From Blasia pusilla (taxonomy: Eukaryota): DNA of 64,000 nucleotides. Of the stretch, positions 5,868 to 54,656 are shown piece after piece. Where the stretch lies: assembly GCA_050084515.1 (NCBI GenBank), contig CM114271.1, forward strand, positions 20,398,001-20,462,000, given 5' to 3'. The translations under genes were made by a program, and so were the position numbers. Positions within the stretch are counted from its first letter, which is position 1, and each line of letters opens with the position of its first letter. The notes under the pieces were generated by a model. The model saw nothing but the letters and a program-made list of their open reading frames with translations, ran no database searches and had not been told where the DNA came from.

Positions 5868-7087
5868 AGTGTGATGCTTACAAAGAAATTTATAACTTAA
5901 CAATAGTCACAAATTCCTTGATCATTTCTAATTATTATGCGATTATCCAAAGTTGTAAACTCTGACAATCCAAAATAAGAGCTAGTATAATATATGTCTC
6001 AAGAATTCTATTCAATATAAAAATATCTAAAATCCTATAAATCTCATAAGAAAATCACAAATAGATCATAAAATGGAATCCCTTGCATTGACATAATTTT
6101 GTAACTTAGATTATGTTACTATACGGAGTCTTGAATATCTTGAGCTAAGAGTGGACTTGGTCATATATCTATGTAGATTATCGAGAGTGTATTGATATCA
6201 ATAGTCACTTCAATTGTTAAGACATGGATATGAAATAGTTGACTATTCAAGTGAATTATCTTACATTTGAACGTGCACATTTAGAGAATTTGAAGCAAGA
6301 TAATCAAAGAAAAATATAGAGAGATAAAGCATATTGCTCTTTAGTGTTATGAGAGAATAAGTCTAGATTCTAGCTTGTTGTGTGTGCCATTTGATGCAAA
6401 GTCTGCTTATGCATGCATAGATATTTGAATTTTTTAATCTTTTGGCCAAGGTGTACAAGGCTAAAATATTGAAAATTCTAATGAAAGCATTATTTCAAAA
6501 TTAAAACATTTGCTCAATAATGTGGTAGATTGTGAGAATTTTAGAGGGGGACATTTTTTATTTTTCATTAGCATCAAATTGCTTTCTCGATCAAGAAGAG
6601 AGTAATTGTGTGAGGACGACTCAGTGAGTATTGGTCTTTGTGAGAGTGAATGAGATTTTATACTAGTTCTAGAAAGAAGAACAAGTATCAAAGGTTAACG
6701 TTGTATGTCATAGATTAGAAGTTTGTTGCCTTCATAATGATCTACTTGTTTTATGGACTTTATTAGAATGACCTATAAAGATAGTATTGCAATGACTACT
6801 CCAATATATCCATAGAGAACTAGGATGCAATTTGAGGATTTATGTTGAGTGGATCAAGATTTTGAAGGTTCATTTTTTTATTAGTAGACCTTTGTTGCCA
6901 CATATATTATCATTAATGGAGAGGATGCATCAAATTATAAGTTATCCAATAAGTCAAAGAGTATTGATAAGATTTCCTTACCATTATTGTGGAATATAGA
7001 TGAAGAACATATATATATGGATCCATAAAGAGACATTGAAAATTTGAAGAGAAGATAGGGAGTTAGAATCTTTTTAACTATCATATT

Positions 7088-7824
7088 TGTCGTGCGCATA
7101 CATATCGCTACACAACATACATCGCTAGTCACATCTATAGCACACAACACCGATCTTCCCCACACATCAGTAGATCCACACATGTACAGAAATCAACTCA
7201 TTCATATACATGGAGATCACAAAAAATAAAGTAGTAAAAATGGCACACCCGGCCTAAAACTCCACTCCTCAATCTATATTGGCATATCGAGCCTCGTCCA
7301 CTCTGCGCTATTAAGGAATCCGGACGCAAGCACCCTAGTCCTATCTCACACACATACAAGAGAGGTGCTCCAACGGCCCAACATGAGAAAGATGGTTTGG
7401 GAAAGCCATCTTCCTCCCTTATATAGGGTTGGGAAGAGCCAAAAGGATCTTCTCCTAAAAATAGCTATCCTCTTGGTAACCAACGTGCACATGTTACCAG
7501 GGGAGGGTGACTTGGTCCGACTGTGAAAGACCTCAACAAGAAAGTTGTCAGAAACGACGTTCTTGACGCAATGGACCTATCCTCAACTTCATCCGACACC
7601 GTGGGGCAAAGTAACACTCAAGATAGTCCGCTGGCTCCTACGCCCTATCCACGATAGATCTCGGCCTATCGCCTACTCAGATGTGACAGTTGTCATGCGC
7701 ATACATATCGCTACATAACATATATCGATGGTCACATCTACACCATAGAACACCGATCTTCCCCACATATGAGTAGATCCACACATGTACAGAAATCAAC
7801 TCATACATATACATGGAGATCACA
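7088..7824. repeat. 3' terminal repeat block of element A: Y (7088-7221) + X (7222-7688) + 2-nt spacer + Y' (7691-7824)
   Basis: 7088-7221 and 7691-7824 are near-identical 134-bp direct repeats. 7222-7688 recurs at about 16363-16842. Junction reads GTGACA-GT-TGTCA. Confidence 0.9.
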
Positions 7825-7904
7825 CAACCGCCCCCCTATCTGGCAGTTGGATCTCCCTAACTCCAGATAAAAAATATCATATCTCTCGGACATGACCTAC
7901 TACC

Positions 7905-9300
7905 CTATACACATCTCAGACACATCCATCGTCCCATGGGAACTACATCAAGAGGGGGGGGGATCAGACATGACATATGCCATCCTCGAGAACAACCATC
8001 ACATACCAACATGGTGGTTGCACCCCTTGCAGATCCGCACAATATACACCTCAAGCCTGCAGGTACCATTGCCAAGCTCGGATCCACTATCCCGTCTATG
8101 TTCGGAAGATGACATGGTGCACAATTGCGCACATGATCCTTCCAAACCATACCATCCTGTCCCTCCAACATGAGGACTCCGGTCGGTAATACCTCGCGCA
8201 CACTTAGGATCGTGCCCCCCTGTAGTGACATCTAGCGTCGTGGGTGCCGCGTGTTGTAAATACACGTAATCTCCAGGATGAAACCTCCTAATTCTTGGAT
8301 GATAACCTCCTCCAAACATGGTCGCGTACCTCAATGTATCTTTATGCTGAGCAATAACTAAGTTCTCAAAGGCCATAGGCATAACTCCGACGCTTGAGGG
8401 GGCACAAGTGATACTTTCTTTCCAAGGTTAGTGCTTCTAGAGTAAATTGGCATAGTCTACGAAAAATCTCTGCCCTCTGAGAACACGCTTGTACCCACAC
8501 ATCTGGATCATCAAGATCTAACACCTCCGCCATGTCACGTTGATTAACTGTAGGTAAATATGGCTCTCTCCCAAAGAGCAAAAAGTATGGTGAAAATGAT
8601 GCCAAGGATGTTTGCCAACTAAAGCGATAACCCATAGCCAACCATGGCAATTGTAGGTCCCACTCCCTCAACTTTCCCCGCTGCATGCCATACTTGCGCA
8701 ATCCTCTCTTCACCGTCTGTACTCCTCTCTCCGCCAACCCATCCACCTAAGGATGATCTCTAGACGTGGTGCGATGATCTACCAGCGCTTGATCACACAA
8801 GGCCTGAAACTTGCCCCTAAACTCGGTACCCTTGTCAGTCAAAACCTCGGCCTGTGCACCAAAGTGACTAAGCACACAATCTAGAAATGCATAAGTTTTT
8901 CCCTCACTCGCCTTGTCTGGTAGTGCCACCAACTCTATCCACTTGGAGAAATGCTCCACCATGACCGACAAGTACCTATGATGATGCCACGTCAATGGCA
9001 AAGGTCCCGCAAAGTCTAAACTCCATCGATAACCATAACCGATAATCGGCAAAGGATGTAACTACGGAGTGGGAGCATTGAAGGATGCTCGCACTCTGTC
9101 ACATACCATACATCTGACCACAAACTGCTATACCCCTATATGCATGTTGTGCCACCAATACTGAACCTGGAGTAAGCTGTAAGTACGCTTTACTCCAAAA
9201 TGCCCCAACTCCTCATCGGCATGTCGCACTACACGTGCTCACTAGGAAGGATGAGGTACCACTCATATCCTACCATCTCTCCATACCCGCAAAATGTGAG
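7905..9300 (-). pseudogene. DDE integrase with C-terminal PHD finger (element A), disrupted
   Basis: WSLDFAGPLP...VEHFSKWIELVAL...LTDKGTEF...DGLAER core, then C4HC3 CILCGS..MLVCDGCSRGWHMSCLIPP.L..VP.G.WMCLRC. Confidence 0.9.
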
Positions 9301-9639
9301 TCCCCTCCCACCTGAACCTCCTGGCTCTCTGTAGGATCTAATCCCGCTCCCTAGCACTCACTGTACTCGCTATGACGCCAGTGCGTAAGAACTCCACAAC
9401 CTCCATTTCATCCTGGATATCACGGCCACCTATCGCCTCTTCACTGACCTCTGGATCCAAAGACTCATCATCCAACCCCACCACTCGAGTCATCACCTGC
9501 GATTGACCTACCATAGTCAACCAACAAAGATAGGCAAATACATGCCAACCGGGCACCATCTCCTCATCATTCTCTCCGTGCCATCGAGCTCTTGTGTCGT
9601 CTCTCTGACTCAAACATGGGTTACGACTCAACCCATCCG

Positions 9640-10900
9640 CATCCTAGTTCAGCCGGCGTGGCCTATGAACCATCTCAAACTCATACTCTTGTAGTAATAG
9701 AGCCCACTGGGCAAGCTTTCCGTAAGCTTGCCGGACTCCATCAATCACCTCAACAGTTGATTAATCAGTGATAAGTGTGAAAGGGTTGCCAAATAAATAG
9801 CACCTGAAATGTGCCACAACCCACACTGCAGCTAAGCACTCTCCCTTGTAAGAGTTGTACTTTTCCTCTGCAATGTTGTTTGATCGGCTCGCGTAAGCCA
9901 CAACGAACTCCCTCTCCTCATCATCCCTCTGAGTAAGCACTGCTCCTAGACTCAACATGCTCCAATCCGTATGTAATTGGAATGGGCGACCCCTAACCGG
10001 TCTCTGTAAAATGGGTGAGGACGTCAACTTGTCCTTGAGCTCTTGAAATGCTCGCTCCTGATCATCTCCCCACAACCAAACCTGATCAAGTCTTGTCAAC
10101 AAAGTCAAAGACTTTACGATCGCACTAAAACCTTTGACATATCGTCGATAGAAGTTCGCCAGTCCAAGAAATGCTCGGACTCGACTCACATCTGTAGTAG
10201 CCTCTATCTTTGTCTGCTGAACGCCTAACCCACTCGTGTATATGGTGTGTCCCAAGTACTCAATTTTCTCTTCAAAGAATCTTCACTTGCCTAGATCTAA
10301 CTTCAGTCCATGTAACTGCAATCACCAAAATACCTCCTCCAAGTGTCGCTCGTGCTCCTCAACCCTGGAACTAAAGATAAGAATATCATCTATGTAACAT
10401 CATACAAACTCGAAGCCAGCCAGAATCCTATCCATCACTCTCTGAAACTCCACAAGCGTGTTCTTCAACCCAAATGGTAAGAACCGCCACTAATACAAGC
10501 AATCTCTCCCGAATCGATCTATCCCCTAGAATATTGTCTTCTCCCTGTCCTCCAACTTGATTGGAAGCTGATGATAGCCATCACGGAGTTCTAAAGTATT
10601 GAAGATCTTTGCATGTCCTACTACATCAAAGATCTCCTCAGGAGTAGGCATGGCATACCGATCAGACCTTGTCTGTCGGTTGATCGAACGGTAATATCCA
10701 CACATCCGCCTATCCGTCAAATTGCCATACATATCCTTCTTTTCCGGCATGACTGTGGCAGATGCATACTCCCTATGTGATAACTCCACAAGTTTTGCCT
10801 CCAACAAGTCCTGACTCCTCCTCGAATCAAGGCTCGCTCCATATCAGAATACCTGTAGGGTTGACAAAAGATCGGCGTATCACAAGCCAACTCAATCCGT
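9640..10900 (-). pseudogene. Reverse transcriptase-RNase H (element A), disrupted
   Basis: RMCGYYRSIN...GYHQLPI, YIDD near 10385-10398, VRAFLGLANFYRRYVKGFS, LHTDWS...VVAYASR...ECLAAVW. Confidence 0.9.
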
Positions 10901-11329
10901 ATCCCGGGACCCTTCAGCATACCCAAGTCTCTCATATTGAAGGCAAAAAAAATGACATGCCCTCTTAGAAGCCTATGAACTCGCGGTCGTTCTCCTCCTA
11001 TCAACTTGAGACCTATCACAGGCTCCCAAGGCTCCATTGTGACCTCACTCGGAGAGTACGCAACCTTCGGCTTTGGTTGCTATGTAACAACCCTAGCCAC
11101 CTCCGCAATAGTCACTCCACTCTGACCTCCTACCCCATGCTCCACATCCAAAAAATTTGAACATGTGATGCTCTGGCCGCCTTTGCAGTCTTCGCTCGAA
11201 TGACATCCCAAGAAGTCCATGGATGTCTATCTCTCCTCATCCTGCCACCAGCTAATGCCTGTACAGACCCTGCAGGCAATGGTCCAACTCGTGGACGTGA
11301 CGGCATGGATGACACTTGCATCCATCTCT

Positions 11330-11700
11330 GCTCAGCCATACTTAGGCTCACTATCCATGTGAGGTCCATCCCCTGCCCCAACACCTATCTCCGAGATGCC
11401 TGAGTCATACCTGGCACCGCCATAATACCCGTAGCAAACCCCATGGCGCGCTCGCGCTCATCTGCTGTAGGTTCCTCTAATGCTCGGATCACCTCATCCC
11501 AAATCATGCTTGGCCCTCCTTGACGAAAGGCTGGGAAGCTCACCAACATAGGTAAGGTTGCCTTCAACTCCCCCACCCTATTGGCCATCGCCAACGGTGG
11601 TCTATCATCTCGCGTAACCACCTCAGATCAACGCCCTGAGCCCAAAATAGCATCGAATATGAGATATGGTACTCTCTGGACTCCATCGTATGCTCGACTC
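11330..11700 (-). pseudogene. C-terminal part (TRD, motifs IX-X) of a DNMT3-like cytosine methyltransferase in element A
   Basis: ERERAMGFATGIMAVPGMTQASRR*VLGQGMDL resembles the DNMT3 motif IX/X pattern E.ER.FGFP..YT.V..MS..AR...LG..W. Truncated upstream by the element D insertion. Confidence 0.75.
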
Positions 11701-14700
11701 TCTCACGTCTTTTAGGATAGATCAGTGAGATCTATGAGAGCACCTTTGTGAGTAGTGGAGGACACACTTAGTAGGTCAAGGATGACCTGTTGAGGCCTCG
11801 AGAAACTTGAGAGAGCAGGTTTCCCCTTCGTTTTAGCTCATTTGGAGCCATATTGAGGAACTTACTATTTTAGTGAAGAACCATTTTGAGTATATAATCG
11901 ACTTTATATTTTTGGTAAGTGGCCCTTGACCTCCTACATCAGGTCAAGAGCCAAGGAGGTGACTTGGGAGAATAGGTTACCATGGAGAGAGCTTGGGAGA
12001 AGGGGGGTATACCTCAAGGAGAAAGAGCTTGAGAGCTCATTCTCTCTTTGTTGAACCTCTTGGCATGAGGTGGCGAAGCTATGGTCCCTTGCCTTGTGAG
12101 TGTTACCCAAGCCTCTCATTAGGAGAGTGGGTTTGATTTGACATGAGAAAGAGTGCACACATTTGAGAGCTATGGTGTGAGATGGTGTAGAGAGAGATTG
12201 GATCTTACTTTACAAAGAAAGAATGAGAGAGTGAGAGAGCTTCATGGGAGAGCTTGCTAGTCACTCGCTGGTTTTGCAGGTTGGGTTGGTGTTCCCCATT
12301 CAGCAGCTCATGGGAGTGCTCACCGGAGCAAGGGTTGCTTTGATTGTTCTTTGCATTTGCTGATTTTTCGTGTGGAAGAGTGGCGCGCGGAAGAGCTGCC
12401 CAATTTCTGATAGGGATTGATTATGGGGGCAAGTTGCCCCATTTTGGTCCTCTCAAGAGCAACATTTAGCTTGTTGATTTGTATTTTTATAGGTTTTACA
12501 TTTTGGTTGGGAGAAATCAGCGCGGAAGCGCTGCCAAATTTTGTGTAGGAGAAAGAGACATTGGGCTTTACGACAATCCCTGTCTGTTTCTACTGGAATG
12601 TCCAATTCCAAATATTTTCTGACACTATTGTAGATCATAAAGCTCTGCACGTTGTGCAACAAACGGTATGCAATTTGGAGTTGCGAGTAAAAAGTTATGG
12701 TCAATCTTGAAAATTTGCCATTGCTAGGCAATTTTTAGGGTTAAATTATTCAAACCCTAAACCAGCCGCCACGCCGGCGGCGGCCGTCACCGTCATAGTC
12801 ACCATCACCAATCAACGGTCAATCATCACCGTCAATCGTCAACCGTCATTATCAACGGTCCGTCGTCACCATCAACGGTCAACCCTCACCGTCAACGTAC
12901 CACCGTTGGCCGTTGCCGTTGCCCAGCCTTGCTTAGAGCTGCATTCGGCCATTGTCCACCCTTTGGTTACCTTTGCCGCCATTACGAAGTGGAGGGTCTT
13001 CCACGACCAGCGTTGATTCTCTGACTTGCGCCGCCACCACATACTTTGGTTTGGCCGTCACCGTCATCGCCGTTTCGTCATCAACCATTGATGGTAGATG
13101 AACTCTGGTTATGGTGTTTGAGTTTTGATTTCATGCTGCTATGTTGTGATTGGTAGCCACTCGATGACGATCGAGTACCGTGCCGTGACACACATAGCCG
13201 CAACGCGCCGCTGATTGCCGCGTTGTGCCGCTCGTGGCCGCACTGCACCGTCTCGATCGCGGACCCGCACCGTCATTGTGGACCAGAGTGTGGGTTTATT
13301 GTTGATTGAGGAGGGTATGCCGCCGAGTGCTGTATCCCACCATCGAGGGCCGTGCCGTTCCATGCCGCCTGCAACGCCGCACCGTTCCATTGGAACCGCA
13401 CTGTCCATCAAAGAGTTTTAAGCAGCATCAATACATGAGGAGTATGACTTGCTGATTGGAGGAGTTGTCTCCACAACTAAGTTGGGGTCGACATTTGCAG
13501 TTGCTGAGGAGCAACATCGACATGTGTTTCAGGTTACCTATTCTGGTCCTTTATCTTGCACGTGTGAGGGATTCTGGGATTTGGGTAGTTTATTTGGGGA
13601 TTGGGGTGTGGATGCTGAGAGCATCATTTATGTATGTGGTTTAGGGGACATAGACCTGTGTGGGATGTCCAAAGTTGAGGGTAGGTTGTCGATGAGATGA
13701 TAGCCTCGTCGATTTTCCGCACCACGCCACTTGTTGTCGCACGTTACATTTCTCGGGAGGAAGAGTGTAGATCAATTGCTGCATGTTTGGGATGAGTGAT
13801 TGAGGGATTACTCGCGAGGTTGAGAGTCATCGTGTGAGAGGGGCACGAGGGCCATCACCACGTCCTTTCAGGATTTTGAGAGGCGAGTTAGTGGACGTGA
13901 GAGTAGCTCTAGAGGGTTTACCCGGAGTGGTGGGAGGTTTCAAGGGTCTCCACGTGACACACCGCCTCGATCTCCTTCTCTGTCGTCTTCAGACGAGCGG
14001 GAGCGTGTAGAGGAGTTTGTGAGCACATCGCCACACATTATGAGTGGTCCTACCAGTTGGGTGTACGAGATGGACGATCGGGATAGAGGACCGCGTAGGT
14101 TTTCAGGTGCAGTAGGCACGGTTGAGTTGCACGATTTCATAGCAGAGTTTGGGAGTTGGTCCCCGACTCCTAGCGGGCCAGGAACTCTAGAGAGTTCAAC
14201 CAGTTTACAGCATGGAACGATATGTTCCAGCATTTAGAGGGGGCGCCCATGGACAATTACCATGAGTTCTCTCAGAGATATGCACATGAGATTGAGACGT
14301 GGAGGCTCTACTATGACCCACATTATGTGTCATGGACGGAGCCATTCCCAGATGAGGAGGAGGAGTCAGGAGAGGCTACTTCCTCTTCCACTAGTGACGT
14401 TTTAGGAGGGGTCACTTGCACGGGAGCAGTTGCACCGTCTAGTCGGGTTTGTCCCAGGTTCAACCCTGTGGTTGAGTTCTTTGCTAAGTTGAGGGCGAGC
14501 TACTAGGGGGTACGGACGGAGAAGTTGTGGAGCATCCACGACTTCCAGAGGCGCCCCGGGTGAGAGTTTGCGTGAGGCTTACACTCGCTTGCGCCGGTTG
14601 ATCAACGTCACTCATGGGGTGACAGAGGCTCAGGCTAACCAGTCATGGTATGCGATGCTAGACCGGACCCTACGGACACGGGTGCATGAGGGGGTGCTTC

Positions 14701-15095
14701 TTATGAACACCTCTCCTACGTTGAGAGATGTTTATAGGACCGCTGAGAACAATGAGCGCAACATGGCGGAGGAGAGCGTAGCCACCATGGGTTCTAGGCG
14801 AGAGCAGTTACGATTGTCTGCACTACTTGTGCAGCAACATGGACTCCGAGATAGATTGACTGTGGCACCACGAGCTCAAGGAGGATATCGGGAGGCCGTG
14901 CCATAGAGACCTACGCCTTCATATGCGGCTCAGCAGCAACCACCTACTATTACTTGTTGGTCATGTGGTGGAGCCCATCATCAACGCGATTGCACTTGTC
15001 AAGGTCATGGACGTGTGCCTCAGTATGGAGGAGGAGATGGTGTTGCACCAGGAGGTTATCACTGTGACTATTGTTAGAGGTATGGTCATACACGC
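11701..15095 (+). mobile_element. Element D: 3'-truncated subfamily-2 copy nested in element A (5' X repeat, leader, gag)
   Basis: 11701-12220 is the reverse complement of X at 29885-30398. Leader is homologous to 26100-27840. Gag 14020-15095 with CWSCGGAHHQRDC and CDYC..GH knuckles. Ends at a deletion junction into element A gag. Confidence 0.85.
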
Positions 15096-16362
15096 GCGCT
15101 CGAACAACCCCTTCCAGGCCATGAAAGGGTTGAACTGTGTCGGGGTCCGTATCTCTTGGAAGTCGCACCACGTGTCAAACTCCAAGATAAAATCATCTTT
15201 GTCGATGGTGCCCACTGCACCCGAGAAACGACGCATGCCGGATGGCCCATGTTTTCCATCTCCTGCCAAGTGATACTGCCTCTGTCTGCGATCTCGTCAC
15301 CAGACTCGGTGTATAGTGATGACAATATAGCCACGGATGGATGTCGAGGTAGCTCCTCACTCGTAACCCCTTGGTATCTCACTCCACTCTGTGTCACACC
15401 ACTACTACTGCTTGCACTACCCCGTTCTTCCGAACCTTGGAAGAACGCCGTGATGACAACCGTATCTTACGTGCTCAAGCATTGAGACTCACCGAGACTC
15501 TCCCACCCTCCTCACTAGCTCACCGATGCTAATGATAATCCTGTGATGACACACCCAACCTCACGCACATTCAACACTCAGGCTCACCATGAGCCTCTCG
15601 ACTATCTCACCTAAATCACCAACATACGCTCAGGTCATACACTTGACCCCTACTTAGCAATCGCCGTATACCCGCAAACGTGCCAAGGAGTCTACCCTTG
15701 GCACGATAACTACACCCATCTAGCACCAGCTACTACCCGACCCATCATACTCAACGACACAAGATAAGTGCGGGAACCTCATCATGCCCTCCAACCTACT
15801 GCATCGTCAACACCCACTCCATACGTGTGGCATGACAACCTCCGTAGCACAACCATCTCCTCGCACACACGTAAAACCTCTCGTCAGCATCGGCATGTGT
15901 GTCCCCATCACAACCCTCACAAATCCCAGCCATGCCCGAAAAACATTACGTCGTGCAAACCTCTCCGCCCATCCCCAAACGCACTCCATAACCTTACTCA
16001 ACTCCGTCTGAACTCAACCATGTCAGCCCGTCTACCACGTTTCCCGCACCGCTACCACGTCACCCGCACTACTACCACGTCTCCTTCACATCTACCACGT
16101 ACGCCCTACCCTGCTACCAAGTTGGATGGGAGGCGCCGAACACGGAGCTCCCGAAGTTGGCGCCAACCACGTCTGAAAAAATTGGGGGGCAGGGGGGGGG
16201 GGCGTTAGGCCCTTGGCCAACATCCCTATGCACATGTGTAGGGAAGGGGGTTGTGGGCTTGACACCTGCCTGTCACATGCACGAGGGCGGGGGCGCGAGG
16301 CAACTCGCTTGCCTATCTGCAAACAACGAATTCCCACTAGCCCCCTCACATCTTTCTCGTGT

Positions 16363-16842
16363 AAAAATAGAGAGTAGTAAAAACGGCACACCCGGCCTAA
16401 AACTCCACTCCTCAATCTACATCGGCATATTGAGCCTCGTCCATCCTGCGCTATCAAGGAATCTGGACGCTAGCACCCTAGTCCTATCTCACACACATAC
16501 AAGAGAGGTGCTCCAACGGCCCAACATGAGAAAGATGGCTTGGGAAAGCCATCTTCCTCCCTTATATTGGGTTGGGAAGAGCCAAAAGGCTCTTCCCCTA
16601 AAAATAGCTATCCTCTTGGTAACCTGCGCGGGCATGTTACCAGGGACGGGTGACGTGGTCAACAAGTCACCCGGCTGTGAAAGACCTCAACTGGAAAATT
16701 TCCAGAAACAACGTTCCTGACACAATAGACCTATCCTCAACCTCATCCGATACCGTGGGACAAAGTAACACTCAAGATAGTCCGCTGGTTCCTACGCCCT
16801 ATCCACGATAGATCTCGGCCTATCGGCTACTCAGATGTGACA
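16363..16842. repeat. 5' terminal repeat X of element A
   Basis: Direct repeat of 7222-7688, ends GATGTGACA, with no Y segment attached. Confidence 0.9.
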
Positions 16843-16846
16843 TATT

Positions 16847-17060: not shown

Positions 17061-19416
17061 GGTTTGATATAGAATATTATATTATTTCTAATCTAGTGGA
17101 GAGAATCAATAAGGCATTCATATCTATAGGCCAAGAGTGACCTCATTGGGGAGGTGGCAACTTGAATAAGAAGATTTAATTTTTAAGAGCAATATGAGTT
17201 TATATTAGCTACAACCTAGTTACTATTCTACATGTGCATTTATTTAATTTTTGACTTATTTTCCTTTTTTACATACATATATGAAGATGACTTTTGACCT
17301 ATTGTATGAGGTTAGGGCTACCAAGTTAGTGACATATGTATAAAAATTACCCATGAACGGTTGGATCAACTATGTTTACCCAACATAATATCATAAATAA
17401 AGAAACCAACACCTACTATTTTTCATTACAAGTTTTTTCAAGAGAGTTTTGCAATACTTCTCTAAAGATAAGAAAATGCTATACACTACACTTAAATGTT
17501 GGATTGATGTTGTTGAAAAATAGATAGAAATGGCTTCCTTCAAAGGAGAGCTCCAAAATTTTGGTGCATATCGATGCATAATGAGAGTTTTCCTGAAATT
17601 GAAAGTGATTGGTCTATTTACTCTCTTGAATGGAGACTGAGTCAACTTATCACTTTCTAGATCTCAGAGAAGAAATTGATCGTTCAATCCCTTATTTTCA
17701 ATAGGGAAGTGGGTCGACCAATCATTTTCCATATCTTGAAGAAGAAAAATGTAGGGCTAACTCACTCAATTTTTTCATTGAAAAGAAAACTTCAATCATT
17801 TTCTAATGCTTTTTGACAAAGACATTTTTTCTTAGTTAATAATGAATCTAGATTAAAATCCTACATACTCAAAAATACTTTAGAGCTAAATAGAAAATTT
17901 GATTTATTCAAAGAAATTATATATGTTCCCACTTAAAACTATATGATTTTTTCAAAACTTATTTCAATCCAAAGTTTTGGGGGAAAAGCACCTTTTCCTT
18001 TACTTATATAATGCTTCAACTAATAATTTTTCATGGTTAAAACTTTCCTTCAAATTAAAAGGGAAAGATGAAGTTAATTTTCTCTAGGTTCAACAATAAA
18101 AGTAACTGAATGATCAGTTTCCTTTCATATCTTACTAAGGGGAACTTAAAAGAGGAAGGGCTTTAACTTAAAGAAGGGGTTACTCTAATTTTAAAGGGCA
18201 AAAGCTTAACTTGAAGGAGGAGAATGGAGCTATTTAAATTAAGATCCCTCATTAACCTCTATAATAAACTCTCCACCGTCCTTAAGTTGAAAGGGAAAAA
18301 ATAATTCTCCCATTTGAATTTGATTTCATTTTTACTACTTAAAATTTCAATTTATTTTCATAATGATTTTTTCTAACTCAAATTATTTTGGAGGAGTTAG
18401 AAAAAGATTAGGAATATCTCCTTAAAGAATATGTATCAAAAAAAAATCATCTTCCTAGAAAATTAGAACTATTTAACTTTTATCTTCACTACAATATCGT
18501 GCGCATACACATCGCTACACAACATACATCGTTGTCAACGGACACAGACATAAACACGCACAATCCTATGTTAATTCATGGCATCCAAACAACAAGACAA
18601 GAAGTACCAAAATATCTCCAAAATATATACCCTAAGATTCAATCTCTCTCACAACACCATAGTTCTCACATATGTGCACTCACATGTCTCTCTCAATATC
18701 AAACCAAACCCACTCCCATAATGAAAGGCTTGGATTACACACACAAGGTAAGCAAGACCATATCTCCGCCGCCTCATGCCAAGAGGCTCAAGCTCTCTCT
18801 CCTTGATGTATACACCTTCCCTATCCCAAGCTCTCTCCATGGTAACTTATGCTCCCAAGTCAACTCCTTGGCTCTTGACCTGATGTAGGAGGCCAAGGGC
18901 CACTTACCAAAAATAGAAAGTAGATCATATATGGTACTCAAAATGGTACTTACCTAAAATAGTAAGTTCCTCAATATGGCTCCAAATGAGTCGAAACGAA
19001 GGGGAAACCTGCTCTCTCAAGTTTCTCGGGGCCTCAGCAAGTCATCCTCAACCTATTGAGCCTATCCTCCACTACTCATGAAGGTGCTCTACTAGATCTC
19101 ACCGATCTATGCTAAAAGACATGATAGATGTCGTGCGCATATATATCCCTGTCACCGAACATACAAAAACACGCATAATCCCATGCTAACTCATGGCATC
19201 CAAACAACAAGACAAGAATTACCAAAATATCTCCAATGGCCCCCTAGCTAGTGATTAGGTCTCTCTAACTCCAGATAGCCATCTATCCCTACCTACCATG
19301 ACGTACATCTCTCGGACGCTAAGAGCGAGAAGGCCGGATGGTCATATGACCCCATCGTTAGTCGTTTTCTTGTCATCCATATCACATATATAAGTCGGAA
19401 TATAGAACCACCTACT

Positions 19417-20700
19417 CTATGTACATCTGGGACACATCCATCGTCCCTGAGGAACCCTAGTGAGAGGTGACATCAAACATGCCATATGCCATCCTCTCGA
19501 ACACCCATCACATACTAGCATAGTGGCTGCACCACGGGCCGAACCACACAACATACACCACAAGCTTGCAGGAACTATTGCTAAGCTTGGATCAATTGTA
19601 CCGTCAATGTTCGGAAGATGATATGGCGCACAGTTACGCACATGGTCCTTCCAAACCATACCATCGCGTCCCTCCAATAAGAGAACACCAGATGGCAAAA
19701 CCTCACGCACTCTCAAGATGGTGCGCCCTGCAGTCACATCCAACGTCGTGGGTGCCGTCTGCAAAAAGTAGACATAGTCTTCTTGATGAAACCTCTGAAT
19801 AGTAGGTCAATAACCACCTTCCCAAATAGTCGCATACCTCAACGTATCCCGATGTTGCGCAATTGCCAAGTTCTCAAACGCCATGGGCATCACTCTCCAA
19901 AACAACTCAGCTCTCTGAGAACATGCTCGCATCCATATATCAGGGTCATCAAGGTTCAACACCTCACCAATATCTCGACGAATGGCCGTAGGTAAATCTG
20001 GCTCTTGGCCATAAAGCAACAAGTACGGTGAGAAAGACGCTAAAGATACCTGCCTGCTGAATGTGTATCCCCTTGCCAACCACGGCAACTGGAGGTCCTA
20101 ATCTCCTAGGTGACCTCTCTGCAAGCCATACCTGCATAGTCCTCTCTTCACCGTCTGCACAATCCACTCCGCTAGTCCATCCGCCTCAGGATGATCTTGC
20201 GAAGCAATGCGGTGGTCGATCAGTGCCTGATCACACAAGGCCTGAAACTCCCCGTGGAACTTTGTACCCTGGTCAATCAACACCTCAGCTGGTGCACCAT
20301 AATGACTCTGCACTTGATCTAGGAAGGCATACGCTACTCCCTTACTCACTTTGTCAAGCAATGCAACCAACTCTATCCACTTCGAGAAGTGCTCGACCAT
20401 CACTAACACATAACGACTATGGCAAACCGTCAAAGGCAAAGGTCCTCCAAAATCCAAACTCCATCTATAAACCTAAACCCATGATCAAAAGTGGATGCAA
20501 CTGTGGAGTCGAAGCATTGAACGATGCTTGGACTCGATCACACATCATGCATCTGGCAAGAAACTGTTGAACTTCAATCCGCATGCCTCGCCACCAATAC
20601 TGAATCTGGAGCAAGTTGTACGTCCGCCTCACTCCAAAATGACCCAACTCCTTGTGGGCATGACGCACCAAATGTGCTCTCTACAAAGGATGAGGCACTA
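19417..20700 (-). pseudogene. DDE integrase with C-terminal PHD finger (element B), disrupted
   Basis: HHCC HAHKELGHFG...CMMCDR; core DFGGPLP...LIDQG...DGLAE; PHD CMLCGS..MLVCDGCSRGWHMACLMSPLTRVPQGRWMCPRC then a stop. Confidence 0.9.
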
Positions 20701-21049
20701 CACACACTCTACCATCCTCCCATACTCGCAACACATGTGTGCCCTTCCACCGGAATTGTGAGGCTCACTGTAGGATCCGATCCCGCTCTCTAGCACCCAC
20801 TGTGCTTGCGACACTGCCAGTACGGAGGTACTCCAAGACCAGTCCATCGTCATGAATGTCTTGGCCACTTGTCGTCTCCTAATCGACCTCTGGATCTAAG
20901 GACTCTCCATCAAACCTTACCATCAAAGTCTCACCAATCTGGCTCTCCATAGCCAACAAGCCCAAATAGGCTGACGCATGCCATCCTGGCACCAACTCCT
21001 CATCATTCTCACCATGCCAATGAGCTCCAGTTGCATCTCGCTGACTTGG

Positions 21050-22350
21050 GCATGGGTTATGGCTCAAACCATTTGCATCCTGGTTGAGCATCCCACGTCT
21101 ATGCACCACCTGGAAGTCATACTCTTGCAACAAAAGAGCCCACCTCGCAAGCTTCCCTGTAAGCTTTCTAGACTTCCCTTAAAGTGGCTGATGATCAATA
21201 ATGATGGTAAAGGGATTGTCGAGTAGATAACATCTAAAATGTGCAGCCCACACTGCAACCAAGCACTCACCCTCATACGAGATAAACTTTGCCTCAGCAA
21301 TATTGTTCGAGCGACTAGGGTAAGCCACCACAAACTCTTTACCATCATCGTCATGTTGGGTGAGCACGGCTCCAAGCCCCAACATGCTCCAATCGGCATG
21401 CAATTGGAAAGGACGCCCCCTTATCGGTCTCCTCAATATTGGTGCGGACGTCAATCTATCCTTGAGCATCTGAAATGATCTCTCTTGCTCATCCCCCCAG
21501 TGCCACTCCTGATCCACCTTGGTCATCAAGGTTAGCGGCTTCGCAATTGAACTGAAAACCTTGACGTACCGTCGATAGAAGTTTGCCAATCCCATGAATG
21601 CACAAACTCGACTCACATCTGTAGGGCGTGGAATGCGTGAAATAGCCTCTACCTTTTTTTGTTGCACACCAAGGCCCCCTTGGTATATTTTATGACCCAG
21701 GTACTCAATCTAGTCGTAGAAGAACTTGGACTTGCCTGGATGTAGCTTCAGCCCATGTAACTGCAATCGTCGGAACACCTTCTCTAGATGTCCTTCATAC
21801 TCCTCAACCGTGGCGCTAAAGACTACGATGTCATCAATATAACACCTAGCAAAATCCAGACCTACCAAGATCCTATGCATGACCCTCTGAAACTCAGCCG
21901 GGGTGTTCTTTAACCCGAATGGTAAGAACCGCCACTGGTACAAACAATCCTTCCCGTGAGCATCGATGCCCCAAAATGTCGTCTTCTGCCTGTCCTCCAA
22001 TCTGATAGGTAGCTGATGGTATGCGGCTCGCAAATCCAATGAACTGAAGACCTTTGCATCCCCAATCCCATCAAAGATCTCCTCAAGGATGGGCATGGCA
22101 TACCTATCGAACTTTGTCTGCCGATTGATAGGTCGGTAATCTCCACACATTCGCCTATCTGTCTAGTTGCCATGCACATCCTTCTTGGCAGGCATGACAG
22201 TGGCAGATGCATACTCTCCATACAACATCTCCACTAGTCTTGCTCCAACCAAGTCCTGGCTCCTACTCTTAATCAGAGCCCTCTCCATGTCACTGTACCT
22301 GTAGGGTCGTCAAAGATTGGCGTGTCACTCGACAACTCAATGCGGATCCC
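21050..22350 (-). pseudogene. Reverse transcriptase-RNase H (element B), disrupted
   Basis: MCGDYRPIN...FSSLDLRAAYHQLPI...LPFGLKNTPAEFQRVM...YIDDIVVFS; RNase H LHADWS...VVAY...ECL. Confidence 0.95.
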
Positions 22351-26030: not shown

Positions 26031-28094
26031 ATGTGTACGGTGGATCACTAACACACTCTTCTATATGCTCCCCCTCGTCTCAAGAAGACAAATAAGGAGA
26101 TCGAGGTGGTCTCTCACGTGGAGACCCTCGAAACCTCACACCACTCCGGGTAAACCCTCCAGAGCTACTCTCACGTCCACTACCTCGTCTCTCAAAATCC
26201 CGAAAGGACACTATGATGGCCCTCATGCCCCTCTCACATGATCACTCTCAATCTCACGAGTAATCTCTCAATCACTCAAACTAAACATGCAGCACTCAAT
26301 CTACACTCTCTCACTAAGACATGAGTTGTGCGGCAATAAGCATCGTGGTGCGGCAAATCACTAATATATCATCTCATTGACAAACCATCCTCAACTCTGG
26401 ACATCTCACACATGTCTATGTCCCCTAAACCCATACATTATCGATGCTCCTAGCATCAGCCAAATATCCCAAATAACTTCCCAATATCCGGAAATCCCTC
26501 ACAGTCGTAGAGTAAGAGACCAGAATAGGTAATGTCGATGTCCCTCCTCGGCAATTGCAAATCTCAACCCCAACTCGGTCGTGAAGATAACTCCTCCAAT
26601 CAGCAAGTCGTATTCCTCTCGTACTAACGCTGCTCAAACCTTCTCGATGTGCGGTGCAGGTCCAGCGGTCCGGTGCGGCAGTGGCGGCACAGAACGGCTA
26701 CAAACAACACGGCACTAGGGAATGGGGTGCGGCACTTGGCGGCATACCCTTCTCAATCAACAATTCACACGTTCTGATCCTTAGTGAAGGAGCGGCTCTA
26801 CGATCGAGACGGTGTAGTGCAGCCATGAGCGGCACGGCGCGTTGTGGCTACGGGCGTCACGGCACGGTATTCGATCATCATCAAGCGGCTACCAATCACA
26901 ACATAGCAGCATAAAATGAAAACTCAAACACCATAACCCGAGGTCATCTGCCATCACTGGTTGATGAGGAAACTGCGATGACGGTGGCGGCCAAAACAAA
27001 GTACATGGTGGCAACGCAAGTCAGAGAATCAATGATCGTCGTGGAAGACCCTCCACTTCCTAATGGCGGCAATGGAAATCAAAGGGTGGACAACAAACAA
27101 ACGCAGCTCTGAGCAGCGCTAGGCGGCGGCGGCGGCGGCGGCGGCCGACGGTGGACCATTGACGGTGACGGTTGACCGTTGATGGTGACGACCGCCCATT
27201 GATGGTGACCATTGATGGTGACCATTAATGGTGACCATTGGACCATTGACCATTGATGGTGATAGTTGACCGTTGACGGCGACTATGACGGCGACGGCTG
27301 GTTTAGGGTTTGAACAATTTAACCCTAAAAATTGCCTAGTAATGGTAGTTTTGCAATATTGACTATAACTTTTTTCTCGCAACTCCAAATTCCACACCAT
27401 TTGTTGCACAACGTGCACAGCTTCACAACCTATAACAATATCAAAAACTATTTTGAATTGAACATTCCCATAAAAACTGAACGGGATTGTTGTAAAGCCC
27501 AATGTCTCTTTCTCCAATACAAAATTCGGCAACGCTTCTACGCTGATTTCTCCCAACGAAAATGTAAAACCTATGAAAATACAAATCTACATGGTGCTTC
27601 CAAGAGCACCGGCATGGGGCAACCCACCCCCATAATCAATCCATATCAAAAATTGGGCAGCGCTTCCGCACGGCATTCTTCCACACAAAAAATTGGCAAA
27701 GGAAACATCTCAAGTAAGCGGCTCTTGCTCTAGTTAGCACTCCCATGAACAGTTGCACTGAGAATATGATCCCCAATATACAAAACCAGCAAGTAACTAG
27801 TGAGCTCCCCTATGAAGCTCTCTTACTCACTCATTCTCTCTTTGTAAAATAAGATCCAATCTCTCTCACAACACCATAGTTCTCACATGTGTGCACTCTC
27901 ACATGTCTCTCTCAATGTCAAACCAAACCCACTCCTCTAATGAGAGACTAGGGTTACACACAAAAGGCAAGCAAGACCATGTCCTGTGCATACACATCGC
28001 TGTCACCGAATACACACACAAACACGCACGATCCCATGCTAACTCATGGCATCCAAACAACGAGACAAGAAGTAAGTTTCTCTCTTTGTAAAGT

Positions 28095-28470
28095 AAGATC
28101 CTCAACATCTCCCAAAACAATCTGGACCGAGTATCAGCCAACCCACTACCTCGTCTAGCACTCGATTGGCCCTGACATGGCCAACCGGAAATGACCAAAT
28201 CAATGGTCCCTACCCGCTCTAAGTCCTGCGCCCCCAACAATGAAATATCCCTCGGTAGGAAACTTTGGTACCCTTGTACCGCGGACGCAGATAATAAGTC
28301 GGGAAAACGTGGGCGTAAGTGCCACATGTCGTAGTGAGACGCGCCTCGCAACCTCATCACTCTCCACATACAGGTACTGCTGTACTCGCACTCTTGCCTG
28401 CAAAACAACAGCTAACCCGGTGCTAATCTCTCCAAAGAGATCTAACACTCGAATACCCTCCTCCGGGATA
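28095..28470 (-). pseudogene. DNMT3-like methyltransferase motifs I-V in element C (one frameshift, then deletion)
   Basis: IRVLDLFGEISTGLAVVLQARVRVQQYLYVESD (motifs I-II) and RDI...IDLVISGWPCQGQS...GLADTRSRLFWEMLRIL (motifs III-V; catalytic PC retained). Confidence 0.9.
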
Positions 28471-28899
28471 CACCACACAATGGGTGTGGTATCCAAGGGT
28501 GTCATCGTAGCACTCCTTGCTTCCTCGGGTTCCTCAGACCCATCCTGCTCCGGTGCAAACGCCTCGCTCCACGCGATCTACACGTGCTCATCTGCCAATC
28601 GTCGAAGCTTCTCAATCTAACCCCACAGCGGCACCTCTCCTCCACAGAATGATGCAGCTACCATAACACTCCTCTCCATAGAAATGTCAGGAATGGGAGT
28701 ATCCTCTGCATGGACATGTCCCTCAATCAAATCACTACGCCAAGTGATGGCACTGCTTAATGCTACTAAGGTCGCCATCTCTCCTAGCCGTTGCTCGATC
28801 ACTACACATGTGAATCGAACAGGTAATGAGCTGAGGCGCCCATCACCTAACTGCCATCCTGGTGTGTAGGACGCTGACTCCTCCCGGTAATCCAGGGAA

Positions 28900-29200
28900 A
28901 ACCCCATCGGGTATAACACTGCTCCACCAACCAAGACGTCGTAGGACTCTACATCAGTCACTATCGCCTTGGCGCGCACCACGGACTCATATGTAGGATG
29001 TCCCGGGCGAATCCTCACCACGACTCCTGTCGGGTGATATAGTGTGTGGTACTCACTCCATCCAAGGATGTCTGTATCCGAAATGGACAACGCTCCACAT
29101 CGGCTCTCGTCAAGCCCAATCCTTTGAATGACGCTTTCCCCAACATCAAGGGTTGCACTCCAGAATCCAACAAGACGCGCTGTGGACTAAAAGCTCTACC
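28900..29200 (-). pseudogene. Retropepsin-type aspartic protease (element C)
   Basis: RVLLDSGVQPLMLG active-site motif and downstream YDVLVGGAVL, separated by a frameshift. Confidence 0.75.
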
Positions 29201-32200
29201 TCCAGGACTCACCAACTGGAAGACCTCTCCTCGGTTATCCAGCAACACAACACCAAGAGAAGCCATGGCACGCTCTATCATGGGTCTAGCGGGCATCTCC
29301 GCCATCCTAGCAGCCGCAGCCTGCCATGAATCTGACGTGGACGGTCCGAGCATCCGCTCCAAGGGCAAGTCCATCACCTCCTCTGCAATCACCTCTAAAC
29401 GTGATGCAAGAACTCCAACTCCACGCTTACATAGCAAAGCGGCCAGCCGAAAAGCCTCGGCGGGCGTACGTCCCAACGTCATAACATCGGAAGCAGAAAA
29501 TAAAGGACTGCGGTACACAACGGTGGCCGCCCCCAACAACATGCTCGACACATGCCTCTCCTGAGCATCAACAATAGGAGTCGTCGCACTCATTTCTCCC
29601 ATCGCCCTCCGTGCTTGCACACCAACAACATCACCAACTCTCAAGGAACTTTGATGAGGACCCATCGATGGGGTCCTCATCGCTTCGAACAACGTGAAAG
29701 ACTGAGGAAGCCTAGTCTGTTCTTTGGCTTCCCCTTGCTATGGATCCAACTCTGCGGCTGCTCTACACGTCACAACTGCGGCGGCCTCCATCTGGGCAAC
29801 CCCGCACATCCAACCAGGATCTTCCAGATCTCTGGCTGCTCCATATGATGTCGATGCCACGGATCCGACATCAAACGGAGCAATCTCTCTTTGTAAAGTA
29901 AGATCCAATCTCTCTACACCATCTCACACCATAGCTCTCAAAAGTGAGCACTCTCTCTCATGTCAAACCAAACCCACTCTCCTAATGAGAGGCTTGGGTT
30001 ACACTCACAAGGCAAGGGACCATAGCTCCGCCGCATCATGCCAAGAGGTTCAACAAAGAGAGAATGAGCTCTCAAGCTCTCTCTCCTTGGGATATATATA
30101 CCCCTCCCCTCTCCCAAGCTCTCTCCATGGTAACCTATTCTCCCAAGTCACCTCCTTGGCTCTTGACCTGATGTAGGAGGTCAAGGGCCACTTACCAAAA
30201 ATAGAAAGTCGATCATATACTCAAAATGGTACTTATCTAAAATAGTAAGTTTCTCAATATGGCTCCAAATGAGCCAAAACAAAGGGGAAATCTGCTCTCG
30301 GGGCCTCTGCAGGTCATCCTCGATCTCCTAGGCATGTCCTCCACTACTCTTGAAGACGCTCTACTAGATCTCACCGATCTATCCTAAAGGACGTGACAAC
30401 CATAGCTCCGCCGCCTCATACCAAGAGATTCAGCAAAGAGAGAATTAGCTCTCAAGCTCTCTCTCGTTGAGGCATATCCCTCCCCTCTCCCAAGCTCTCT
30501 CCATGGTAACCTATTCTCTCAAGTCACCTCCTTGGCTCTTGACATGATGTAGGAGGTCAAGGGCCACTTACCAAAAATAGAAAGTTGATCATATACTCAA
30601 AATGGTGCTTTACTAGATCTCACCGATCTATCATAAAAGACTATTGTTGATATGGTGAAAAATAGCTTACACGTGAGCGTATAGCCTAGATCATAGTTAT
30701 GAGACTTGTTATTTTTTACATACCCAACTTTGCTAACTACATCAAACGTGGTTATAATATACTTCTAGAAAAAATCACCTTCACTGAAATTTAACAGATT
30801 TCATAAATTGATTTAAACACCATTTTAGTTTTTTTGTATCATACCCTTTCTTCCCCTATTTTAGAAAACTTTTGGAATTTCAAGATTCGTCCTTTTGTGC
30901 TTTGCAAAACATCTTGCATATTTGTGAAAGTTGAATCTTGATTGGTTGAAGATAAAATATAATAAGCCCTTTTTTTTTAATGAACTCCCTTCATGGTTTT
31001 TTAATGGCTAAATCTTTGATGGACCAAAATAACTAATTTAAAATTTTGATTGAAAGTTTGTCGAGGTCTTCTTCAACATAAAATTGAAGCTACAAAATTA
31101 CATTTTTGCTGTACAAAGGTTTGTATTTTTTGGGAGTTTTGATTTCTTGCTTCAGAAAGAATTTATTTTTGGAGTTGAGATCATTTTCGACAAGACAAGA
31201 CTCATAAGTATTTCCCAATAGAAGATCATCGAGGAAATTTTTCGTAATCTCCAAAAATCATGAAATTTTATGCTTGTCTATGAAAGAACATAAGTGAAAA
31301 AAAATTTAACCCAGAATTCAAGAATTTCAAAATATCAAAAGACATTTTTTCTAAGGAAAAGAAAGAAAAAAATTGAAACTTGAAAGTGATTTCCCAATCA
31401 ACTTTCTAATTGAGAATTCAATGATCTAAACCCTGTAAGAATTTAGGATGAAACCAAGGTTGAGGAATCCCAACAGGGAAAGAAAATGCAATTGTCAAAA
31501 CAGCAAGCGTCTTGATCACAGTAGATCAAAATGTCAACCAACCCAAATTTAACCAACCATTGTCAGATTAAACTAGTTATGGTTATGTAACTAGAGGCCA
31601 TAATTTTGGAAAACTATTCCTACATGTCTAGGATTTCAATTTCCATTCTACAATTTTTATTGACTTCAAAATTTTAGCAATTTTCAAATTTAAAAAATAT
31701 ATAAAAAATTGCATAACTTTCAAATTAGGGGATTGCGAAACCAAGAGGAACTTGGATTCACACAGAGGAAGTTGGTTAATATTTTATTTCAATTAAATTT
31801 TTTGTTAATTTAGAGAAAGGATATTCAACCACAAAGTGAATTTCAGTGATCGTTTCATATATATGCTAAAAGAATGATCATTGAGACTCTTAAAATACTT
31901 GATAGGCAATCGAAAAAAATACTCTCGCTCAAATTTCACTCACATTTGAGAGTTTATTGGCTGATCAATTTACCTCTTAACTTGTTGAAAATTGATTATT
32001 TATATGACTCTAATCCATTAAGAGATATTTGGTAAATTTATTTCCTTTCCAAATTGTGATTTGAGATCGTAAATATGAGATCATATCCATATTTATAAAG
32101 TAAAATTCTTACTTGTTGATTTCCTTATTGATTATTAGAAATCAATAAGTATGAATTTTACTTTCTTAATTTTGAAGGGTCCAATTCTACTAACTAATGA

Positions 32201-39780: not shown

Positions 39781-39863
39781 TCATTTCTATGATTGAGCAT
39801 GGTTTCCAACTTGATGAGTTGTATGCACGATGACAAAAACATATCTTTAATAATTATGAGTAT

Positions 39864-40070
<207 letters not shown>

Positions 40071-40559
40071 CAATTCAAAGTCATGGTTATTCGAACCATT
40101 CAATAAATTTATGAATCTTAGGATCCAAGTGCCAAAAATAGGACCCAAGGGATAAGATATCTTATTGAAATCCTTCGTCTGTCGATGTTTGGTAACTATC
40201 TCTAGATGAAAACCCCACAATACCTACTACTTGTTGAGTTTGGAGAAGTCTCAATGGAGATTCATGGAATCAAAATCATGATCATTTTCCTCCAACAGCT
40301 TAATACTATTAAAGAAAATAGTCATAATCATCTATGTACTAGAGCCTTCCAAGCTTCCAATGATAATGTTACCATTGGGGAAAAGAATTGGTACCACAAG
40401 TGCAATTTACGGCTTAACAAGTGGAGCATGTCGATTGATGATTTTCCAATAAGCATTGAAAAAGAATTCAAACTTTTTCGAAATCAAAATGAATGTAATA
40501 TACCCTCTCTTTTGGTGTTGTGAGAACTATATCTTTATTAATGGGAATGAGCACCAAAA

Positions 40560-54600: not shown

Positions 54601-54656
54601 CTAAAACCAATTCATGGCTCAAGTAATTCTCTAATTTTGGATGTAGGTACAGTATG

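Follow-up and report, generated by a model that had tools for sequence, protein, structure and literature searches.

Split Direct Repeats in a Gypsy-Type Retrotransposon Lineage of Blasia pusilla with a Predicted DDE Integrase

Introduction

Retroelements of the PAT/Ngaro type, in the DIRS order, are recognized by split direct repeats arranged as A1-body-B1-A2-B2, with both ends of the element meeting at an internal joint; they encode a tyrosine recombinase, and target duplications are generally absent. For elements of the DIRS order, the internal joint has been proposed to restore the missing ends. Here we analyse a stretch of 64,000 nucleotides of Blasia pusilla (GenBank assembly GCA_050084515.1, contig CM114271.1, forward-strand positions 20,398,001 to 20,462,000; hereafter, the window), in which two related elements, A and B, display this layout as X-body-Y'-X-Y, X being a long repeat, Y a short one and Y' its internal copy. 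They differ from PAT/Ngaro elements in carrying a predicted DDE integrase, a 4-bp duplication and TG..CA ends, and the likeness appears to be convergent.

With Ty3/gypsy elements (Metaviridae), the lineage shares the order of reverse transcriptase (RT), RNase H, H2C2 and DDE integrase domains, TGTNR..CA ends, a short duplication and a polypurine tract, TGTNR termini being attributed to gypsy elements in the accessible part of PMC2836005. It departs from them in lacking two identical terminal long terminal repeats (LTRs), in having integrase-type ends ~90-135 bp inside the LTR that its priming signals would define, and in the frequency of a form devoid of terminal repeats. The self-priming chromoviruses Tf1 and sushi-Tcn1 likewise have at the 5' LTR a primer site complementary to the transcript start (here a presumed start) and no tRNA-type TGG site, although the ends are permuted in the present lineage and a PHD finger stands where those elements carry a chromodomain. 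Among plant gypsy elements, self-priming is predicted for the Tcn1 clade, which occurs in mosses, in the available passages of PMC6317226.

Two further systems bear on the comparison. Integrase cleavage of a palindromic LTR-LTR junction is described for foamy virus (PMC1180852) and human immunodeficiency virus type 1 (HIV-1; PMC1905944, PMC4372172). According to the accessible portions of these papers, a CA..TG palindrome contributed by both ends, of the kind also seen here, is cut at one site, re-opening the 2-LTR circle for integration; there, however, the cut falls where the cDNA tips meet and the route is a side path, whereas in our lineage the palindrome would lie within U3 (unique 3' region) and the provirus retains the tip joint (X end to Y start). 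Ginger DNA transposons share the gypsy-type integrase, TGTNR ends and 4-bp duplication, and one Ginger1 family has a PHD finger; as portrayed in the accessible part of PMC2836005, they have long inverted repeats and no RT or RNase H, while here both enzymes are encoded and the inverted ends span only ~7 nt. The open-access literature yielded no description of a gypsy-type element with split repeats, nor of a bryophyte lineage with a PHD-finger integrase, and the term PHD is absent from the accessible text of PMC6317226 and PMC2864245. Dictyostelium DGLT-A was considered as a parallel on account of a supposedly odd LTR make-up and dropped, since the available parts of PMC5006619 and PMC6101501 give it normal LTRs and a primer-binding site (PBS) 2 bp after the left LTR.

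Results

Anatomy of Element A

Read in sense orientation, that is, on the minus strand of the window, element A consists of X, body, polypurine tract, Y', two bases, X and Y, all inside 4-bp duplications. Direct-repeat search and self-BLAST gave 89.6-92% identity between the two X copies (7221-7688 and 16364-16842) and 90.6-91% between the two Y copies (7087-7224 and 7690-7827), in agreement with the X-body-Y'-X-Y layout proposed for A in a first-pass annotation. The element starts with TGTCAC at 16842 and ends with ACGACA at 7088, and the joint between Y' and the 3' X reads ..CA-AC-TG... The TATT duplication previously assigned to A is indeed present, as AATA in sense, at 16846-16843 and 7087-7084. 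The features of A are as follows:

7084-7087, target-site duplication on the 3' side, TATT on the plus strand and AATA in sense, equal to 16843-16846
7088-7221, minus strand, terminal Y, ending in ..GACA beside the duplication; ~91% identity to Y', with matching end motif
7222-7688, minus strand, 3' X, starting with TGTCAC; TATA box at ~7426-7418 and primer-complementary site at 7393-7381
7689-7690, minus strand, two bases separating CA, the Y' end, from TG, the X start, read directly
7691-7828, minus strand, Y', the internal Y copy; its start at 7828 was set by reads from other copies (joint 7828 to 7230)
7829-7840, minus strand, polypurine tract (G-run), immediately upstream of Y'
7908-8231, minus strand, open reading frame (ORF) piece with a predicted PHD finger, integrase C-terminus (PF00628, E 1.1e-09)
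8750-9061, minus strand, ORF piece with a predicted integrase core of the DDE type, rve (PF00665, E 2.9e-13)
9764-10282, minus strand, ORF piece with a predicted RT-linked RNase H (PF17919, E 5.7e-32)
11656-15097, plus strand, fragment E, B-type and inverted within A: internally deleted Y, spacer, X (~11701-12207), primer site and gag region
15102-16348, minus strand, A's own leader and gag remnant, matching 56932-56111 of another A-type copy
16349-16362, minus strand, primer-binding site, adjoining the 5' X end and complementary to 16537-16524 within X
16363-16842, minus strand, 5' X, with flank before it, the primer site after it and no attached Y
16843-16846, target-site duplication on the 5' side, AATA in sense, read directly

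While the ends of A had been placed correctly, the composite nature of its body, with the inverted B-type fragment at 11656-15097, had been overlooked. Positions 12088-15097 correspond to 27971-24972 reversed (80.5%) and 11703-12225 match 30396-29881 reversed, A's own sequence picking up again on either side of fragment E. This fragment holds the only Y-NN-X-PBS arrangement seen anywhere (NN being the two-base spacer) and is too degenerate to use; it could be the remnant of a tandem copy or of a mirror form, X-Y-NN-X-PBS-body-Y. Both A and B are degenerate, 119 stops being counted within one frame of A.

Split Repeats in Genomic Reads and Metagenome Loci

For the organism itself, ~2 Gb of raw genomic reads (~1% of the run) were mapped to 6950-8350 at a likeness of at least 85%. 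Depths, summed over both orientations, were:

Unique flank, ~1
Body, ~950-1100
X, ~1900-2400, with one variable bin at ~600
Y', ~1060-1200
Y, ~700-960
Last ~40 nt of Y, common to subfamilies, ~3800

The combined depth of Y and Y' is ~2000, and there are roughly a thousand copies, with two X and two Y per body. Reads leaving the X end were of two kinds: 746 continued into a shared sequence (agreement 0.8), the same as what follows A's 5' X, namely the primer site, and ~450-620 spanned the X end into Y. Ahead of the X start, 619 reads carried unrelated AT-rich sequence (agreement 0.33). Past the Y end, read agreement on spacer plus X start was only 38-49%, as fits Y copies that are half internal and half terminal. 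An element bounded by Y+X on both sides would be expected to lack both the random flank ahead of X and the shared sequence behind it. The flanks of new copies in these reads are AT-rich.

Relatives were also collected from metagenomes by alignment of the integrase-PHD region, and the best 80 of 556 were kept as loci, 61 of which, extending 900 nt or more beyond the PHD finger, were scored for the 3' layout. In 30 of these 61 loci, corresponding to 20 independent insertions, the order Y'-NN-X-Y was found: a direct repeat of 56-117 nt (mostly 86-117), whose first copy lies ~175-400 nt past the PHD finger, encloses an X of ~230-400 nt (~1170 nt in one locus), and in eight loci this enclosed X matches a copy 4-10 kb upstream. 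Among the other 31 loci, 18 (16 independent) present a unit-length form, X-body-Y, in which one Y follows the polypurine tract, ends in ..ACA and gives way to unrelated sequence; copy F of the window has this same form. The rest comprise two Y'-NN-X arrangements broken by an insertion, two truncated Y, two deletions, one pair further downstream, and six loci in which no Y was seen.

Near-full-length X copies in the 80 loci (n=41) fall mainly between two Y copies (28) or between flank and primer site (10, plus 3 at contig edges), with 3 others being coordinate artefacts of the Y..X..Y class. None of the 41 has Y before and a primer site after, and in none of the 10 evaluable copies is the 5' X followed by Y, so that no mirror form is found in either set. 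The absence of Y from the 5' X is thereby borne out, and two identical full X+Y LTRs are not the norm (0/10). No true solo X-Y was found in the 80 loci, which were picked by the PHD finger, solo copies being findable only by chance. Altogether, genomic-read junctions and 20 independent insertions make the A1-body-B1-A2-B2 layout a trait of the lineage. As to whether copies bounded by duplications always read X...Y X Y, the long form is common, but the frequent X-body-Y form had passed unnoticed.

The relation between both forms was explored on a tree of the integrase-to-3'UTR (3' untranslated region) segment of 20 copies of one subfamily, one per insertion. Unit-length copies cluster (7/7 in one clade, support 0.93; 4 label changes against a shuffle mean of 6.9, P 0.024), and their terminal branches are similar to those of long copies (medians 0.059 and 0.063, respectively; Mann-Whitney p 0.76). 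Since they are clustered and no older than long copies, they look like primary products rather than late deletions. The clade of seven (L013, L022, L023, L026, L037, L043 and L047) has different flanks and no long-form member.

Termini and Target Duplications

Integrated copies open with TGTCA, the X start, close with GACA, the Y end, and are flanked by 4-bp duplications. The duplication claimed for these elements was perfect in 8 of the 10 copies tested, both in long ones (L028, L053, L058, L063 and window A) and in unit-length ones (L003, L014 and window F); L039 matches in 3/4 bases and L080 in 0/4. The outer Y+X block was also assessed as a separate insertion, but a duplication of its own was found in 0/14 cases tested, while the whole element is duplicated at its borders in 4/4 locus insertions with both ends tested and in window A; the layout claim thus stands. 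Both ends, whose inverted portion is 7 nt, meet inside each copy as CA-NN-TG, and the joint conforms to (C/T)A-NN-T(G/A)T(C/T) in 18/20 independent insertions. The X-end/Y-start joint is irregular in ~6/22 insertions, the CA-NN-TG joint in 1-2/22. At the former joint, L020 departs by +17 nt and L075 by -30 nt, B carries a 12-nt filler, A stands at -5 nt when compared with most reads, and L012 and L016 have variants, as fits a joint made anew in each insertion.

Priming Signals and Transcripts

A G-run lies within ~20 nt before Y' in 17/20 independent insertions, and in several copies the terminal Y starts at the very base following the G-run. At the other end, the sequence directly adjoining the 5' X is reverse-complementary to a site midway along X. 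The PBS abuts the 5' X, but the polypurine tract is separated from the 3' X by Y', and no Y at the 5' end pairs with the terminal one. The complementarity was compared with 1000 shuffles, counting those that reached the same complementary length:

L028, 17 nt, 0/1000 shuffles
L053, 13 nt, 0/1000 shuffles
L080, 13 nt, 0/1000 shuffles
L063, 10 nt, 4/1000 shuffles
L039, 10 nt, 9/1000 shuffles
Window A, 10 contiguous nt, 6/1000 shuffles
L003, 9 nt, 17/1000 shuffles

These are the 7 of 12 copies tested in which it is significant; in the majority sequence of genomic reads (reads leaving at 7230) the A family reaches 14 nt. The complementary site in X is ~25-33 nt past a TATA-like box, at the presumed RNA start. 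Four subfamilies have four different sequence pairs at the same positions, indicating that both sides of the priming pair changed together. A tRNA-type PBS was rejected, as no TGG-type site follows any 5' X examined, and self-priming was put in its place. On sequence grounds, the 5' X end carries what we read as a Tf1-type self-priming signature.

RNA reads, taken from runs under the same species label as the window organism, map in sense to body, Y', X and Y and reach a depth of 9-22 across the X-to-Y joint, so that transcripts often run past the X end. A peak at 8078-8171 of the minus strand (60-98 versus ~10-25 nearby; reads at 8104 continue with 0.99 agreement) comes from one expressed relative that keeps the coding sequence of the integrase C-terminus.

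Coding Capacity and Relatives

The Pfam scan covered 20 ORF pieces of A, B and E, plus four relatives of 728-1106 aa. Pieces of A matched RT-linked RNase H, the rve integrase core and a PHD finger, and those of B matched RVT_1, RNase H, rve and PHD. A protein search with the integrase-PHD piece of B retrieved 28 proteins at E <= 1e-5 among 337 candidates, some of them source-labelled Marchantia polymorpha, Calypogeia fissa and Sphagnum fallax, so that the relatives with a name come from liverworts and a moss. In three of the four scanned relatives the domain order is RVT_1, RNase H, Integrase_H2C2, rve, PHD, and the fourth (P0008, 728 aa) has the same domains minus RVT_1. Pfam matches follow the pol order RT-RNase H-integrase in A, B and the relatives, where Integrase_H2C2 (PF17921) accompanies rve (PF00665), and the best solved relative of the scanned proteins is Ty3 Gag-Pol (E 1.2e-97). 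No tyrosine recombinase match was obtained in the 20 ORF pieces or the four relatives.

In consequence of these domains and of the Ty3 match, the gypsy-type affiliation (RVT_1, RT_RNaseH, Integrase_H2C2, rve) and the DDE integrase (rve core in A and B, H2C2 plus rve in relatives), both proposed at first pass, hold at the level of predicted proteins: A and B are members of a Ty3/gypsy-type lineage with a predicted RT, RNase H and DDE integrase ending in a putative PHD finger. The family is very abundant and apparently one of mosses and liverworts.

No chromodomain match was found in the A and B pieces or the four relatives, which have the PHD finger (PF00628) instead. The closest solved PHD fingers (for 7908-8231, 19420-19806 and relatives P0015-P0017) are those of KDM5A/B PHD1, PHF21A, AIRE PHD1 and ATXR5, which read unmodified H3K4. 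The predicted finger, rather than a chromodomain, may guide integration here.

Element B and Other Repeats of the Window

The 3' end of B reproduces the Y', X, Y layout of A at 18495-19236, as had been described, with 85.7% identity between Y and Y'. The window contains five occurrences of the 14-nt Y-end motif, where chance alone would give 0.15. The features are:

18495-18621, minus strand, terminal Y of B, with ~12 unmatched bases between the X end and the Y start
18633-19126, minus strand, 3' X of B, from self-BLAST
19129-19236, minus strand, Y' of B, with a G-rich tract at ~19238-19247 before it and TC plus the X start after it
19420-22162, minus strand, pol remnants of B, with predicted PHD (19420-19806), rve (20101-20472), RNase H (21182-21709) and RVT_1 (21713-22162)
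27850-27979, minus strand, last part of B's 5' X, followed by its primer site and gag region
27980-30398, minus strand, F, a nested unit-length copy with X at 30398-29881, an internally deleted body and a single Y at 28074-27980
30403-30641, minus strand, opening segment of B's 5' X, with an internal deletion and an eroded start
55621-55702, plus strand, D, first 82 nt of an A-type X, with unrelated repeat DNA before it and no Y

The sequence at 27850-30641 does contain the 5' X of B, but not as the single piece formerly assumed: F splits it, with TGGT on both sides (30402-30399 and 27979-27976) as its own duplication. A further copy, C, said to start with Y followed by the first bases of X, was not identified as described; the only further Y of the window (27980-28074) is the terminal Y of F, abutting the last ~130 nt of the split X rather than the X start. 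For D, the X without attached Y was recovered, its 82 nt being preceded by unrelated repeat DNA.

Other repeats of the window include three ~1-kb copies (57152-58157, 58759-59764 and 62263-63260), 93-97% alike and one of them inverted, which form a separate repeat family with relatives of ~70% identity elsewhere in the window, the positions involved also including 54656-55621 and 2389-2644. A 101-bp tandem duplication with 100% identity occupies 39867-40067. Remnants of a more distant gypsy-type element, whose RT region is 65-69% identical to those of A and B, lie at 38709-40902, and an X-like repeat beginning with TGTCAC is found at 40902 on the minus strand.

Discussion

The signals of these elements delimit two different frames. 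Judged by priming, the LTR would run from the Y start to the X end, U3 consisting of Y, NN and the first part of X, and R-U5 (repeat and unique 5' region) of the rest of X; judged by integrase-type ends and duplications, the unit runs from the X start to the Y end, with an offset equal to the length of Y. Comparison of Y copies between insertions bears on how this came about. No alignment column of either subfamily shows a fixed difference separating Y' from Y, the nearest Y neighbour in another insertion belongs to the other class in 22/40 cases, to the same class in 16/40 and is tied in 2/40, and Y/Y' identity follows X/X identity within copies, all of which indicates that Y and Y' are remade from one template in each cycle. 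The terminal Y would then not be inherited separately through RNA, which counts against a near full-length template of the PAT type. Considering that (i) the polypurine tract lies at the Y' start, (ii) the self-priming site adjoins the 5' X end, and (iii) Y and Y' show no class differences, reverse transcription would be of the ordinary two-jump kind, with LTR = Y+X, and the unusual step would fall at integration or end joining. For the same reasons, the non-canonical reverse-transcription scheme initially envisaged is not favoured.

Our preferred reading, which we hold to be rather probable, is that reverse transcription is ordinary and that the odd step consists of integration at an internal palindromic site. 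Self-primed two-jump reverse transcription would generate a cDNA of the form (Y-NN-X)-PBS-body-PPT-(Y-NN-X), where PPT is the polypurine tract, and integrase would act on the palindromic CA-NN-TG inside U3 instead of on the cDNA tips. On a linear cDNA, the X-start site of the left LTR and the Y-end site of the right LTR would be the only properly oriented pair, yielding X-body-Y. The long form, X-body-Y-NN-X-Y, would require the X end to be joined to the Y start, a new LTR-LTR joint in each cycle for which circularization, end joining and template switch are candidate routes, followed by cleavage of the internal site of the left LTR. Lacking a terminal repeat and the 3' R, the unit-length form is probably a dead end, and only the long form, in which the 3' R is kept, could provide the template RNA that founds the next generation. 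A stronger version, in which a joined-ends cDNA (a 2-LTR circle or its one-strand equivalent) is the required productive precursor, integrase resolves the U3 palindrome, and LTR-less unit copies are a regular primary product, is put forward only tentatively and may well be wrong. If true, it would be the first natural retroelement with reverse-transcription termini uncoupled from integration termini.

Several observations weigh against integration at an internal palindrome after ordinary reverse transcription. Every step after reverse transcription is inferred, no cDNA or circle having been observed. If the precursor were a symmetric 2-LTR circle, mirror and long forms should be equally frequent, and no mirror form was found; a kinetic bias, with the left LTR becoming double-stranded first, or rapid collapse by X/X recombination are possible reasons for its absence. 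RNA across the X-to-Y joint fits readthrough, but RNA carrying the terminal Y would fit as well. The degenerate copies L014, L058 and B's own 5' end (3/12) are devoid of significant primer complementarity, and that of L048 and fragment E is weak (73 and 140 of 1000 shuffles, respectively). Finally, later Y'/Y deletions might account for the unit-length copies, which would then not be primary products, and their clade may reflect one host genome.

Among the alternatives, the closest to the observed arrangement combines a PAT/Ngaro-like replication with a DDE integrase: a near full-length RNA, X..Y'-NN-X-Y, would use its internal joint as template or splint to restore the ends, and integrase would insert the product. 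The layout is identical, sense RNA does cover the X-end/Y joint (depth 9-22), and the absence of mirror forms would follow naturally. Nonetheless, it leaves unexplained why a polypurine tract marks the Y' start in 17/20 insertions and a self-priming site the 5' X end, separately inherited Y copies should have gained class-specific differences where none is fixed and neighbours are mixed, and 4-bp duplications are present with no tyrosine recombinase detected, so that we consider this explanation improbable. Smaller still is the credit we give to the unit X-body-Y being the basic mobile form, moved or copied as DNA in a Ginger-like manner by an integrase-transposase acting on TGTCA..GACA, with the long form as a by-product. 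Unit-length copies are certainly common (16 independent versus 20 long), have 4-bp duplications and 7-nt inverted ends, include a clade of seven, and resemble Ginger in integrase type, TGTNR ends and 4-bp duplication as far as the accessible part of PMC2836005 goes. Yet intact relatives retain RT and RNase H, the subfamilies preserve their priming signals through compensating changes, a copy number near a thousand is hard to reach by cut-and-paste, and the parallel divergence of X/X and Y/Y' pairs is what copying at each insertion should produce.

An ordinary LTR element in which X is the LTR and the extra Y derives from a local duplication, a solo insertion or an assembly artefact would account for Y'-X-Y reading as 1.2 copies of a 603-bp tandem unit. 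However, 20 independent insertions from other assemblies share the layout, as do two subfamilies of the window, every junction is present in raw genomic reads, the outer block shows its own duplication in 0/14 cases against 4/4 loci and window A for the whole element, and the polypurine tract is not beside X. We regard this possibility as refuted by the raw-read junctions, the independent insertions and the duplication tests, and give it hardly any credence.

Conclusions

The earlier warning that standard LTR finders would mis-annotate such elements is supported. They would call X the LTR, setting the 3' end ~100-135 bp short and missing the primer logic, and would miss altogether the unit-length copies, 16/36 independent insertions in related loci, because these have no terminal repeat. 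As a PAT/Ngaro-like layout arose here with a predicted DDE integrase, layout alone is not diagnostic of the DIRS order. The polypurine tract adjoining Y' and the putative Tf1-type self-priming signature at the 5' X end are new in this analysis. On the reading favoured here, the copies would record integrase action on a palindrome inside the LTR as well as an end-to-end joint of the cDNA that persists in the provirus, offering a natural system to test junction-bearing unintegrated DNA as an integration precursor, which is an old question. The unit-length form, with its short inverted ends and 4-bp duplication, looks intermediate between LTR retrotransposons and DNA transposons of the Ginger type, and the predicted PHD finger in chromodomain position suggests that the family would address a different chromatin target.

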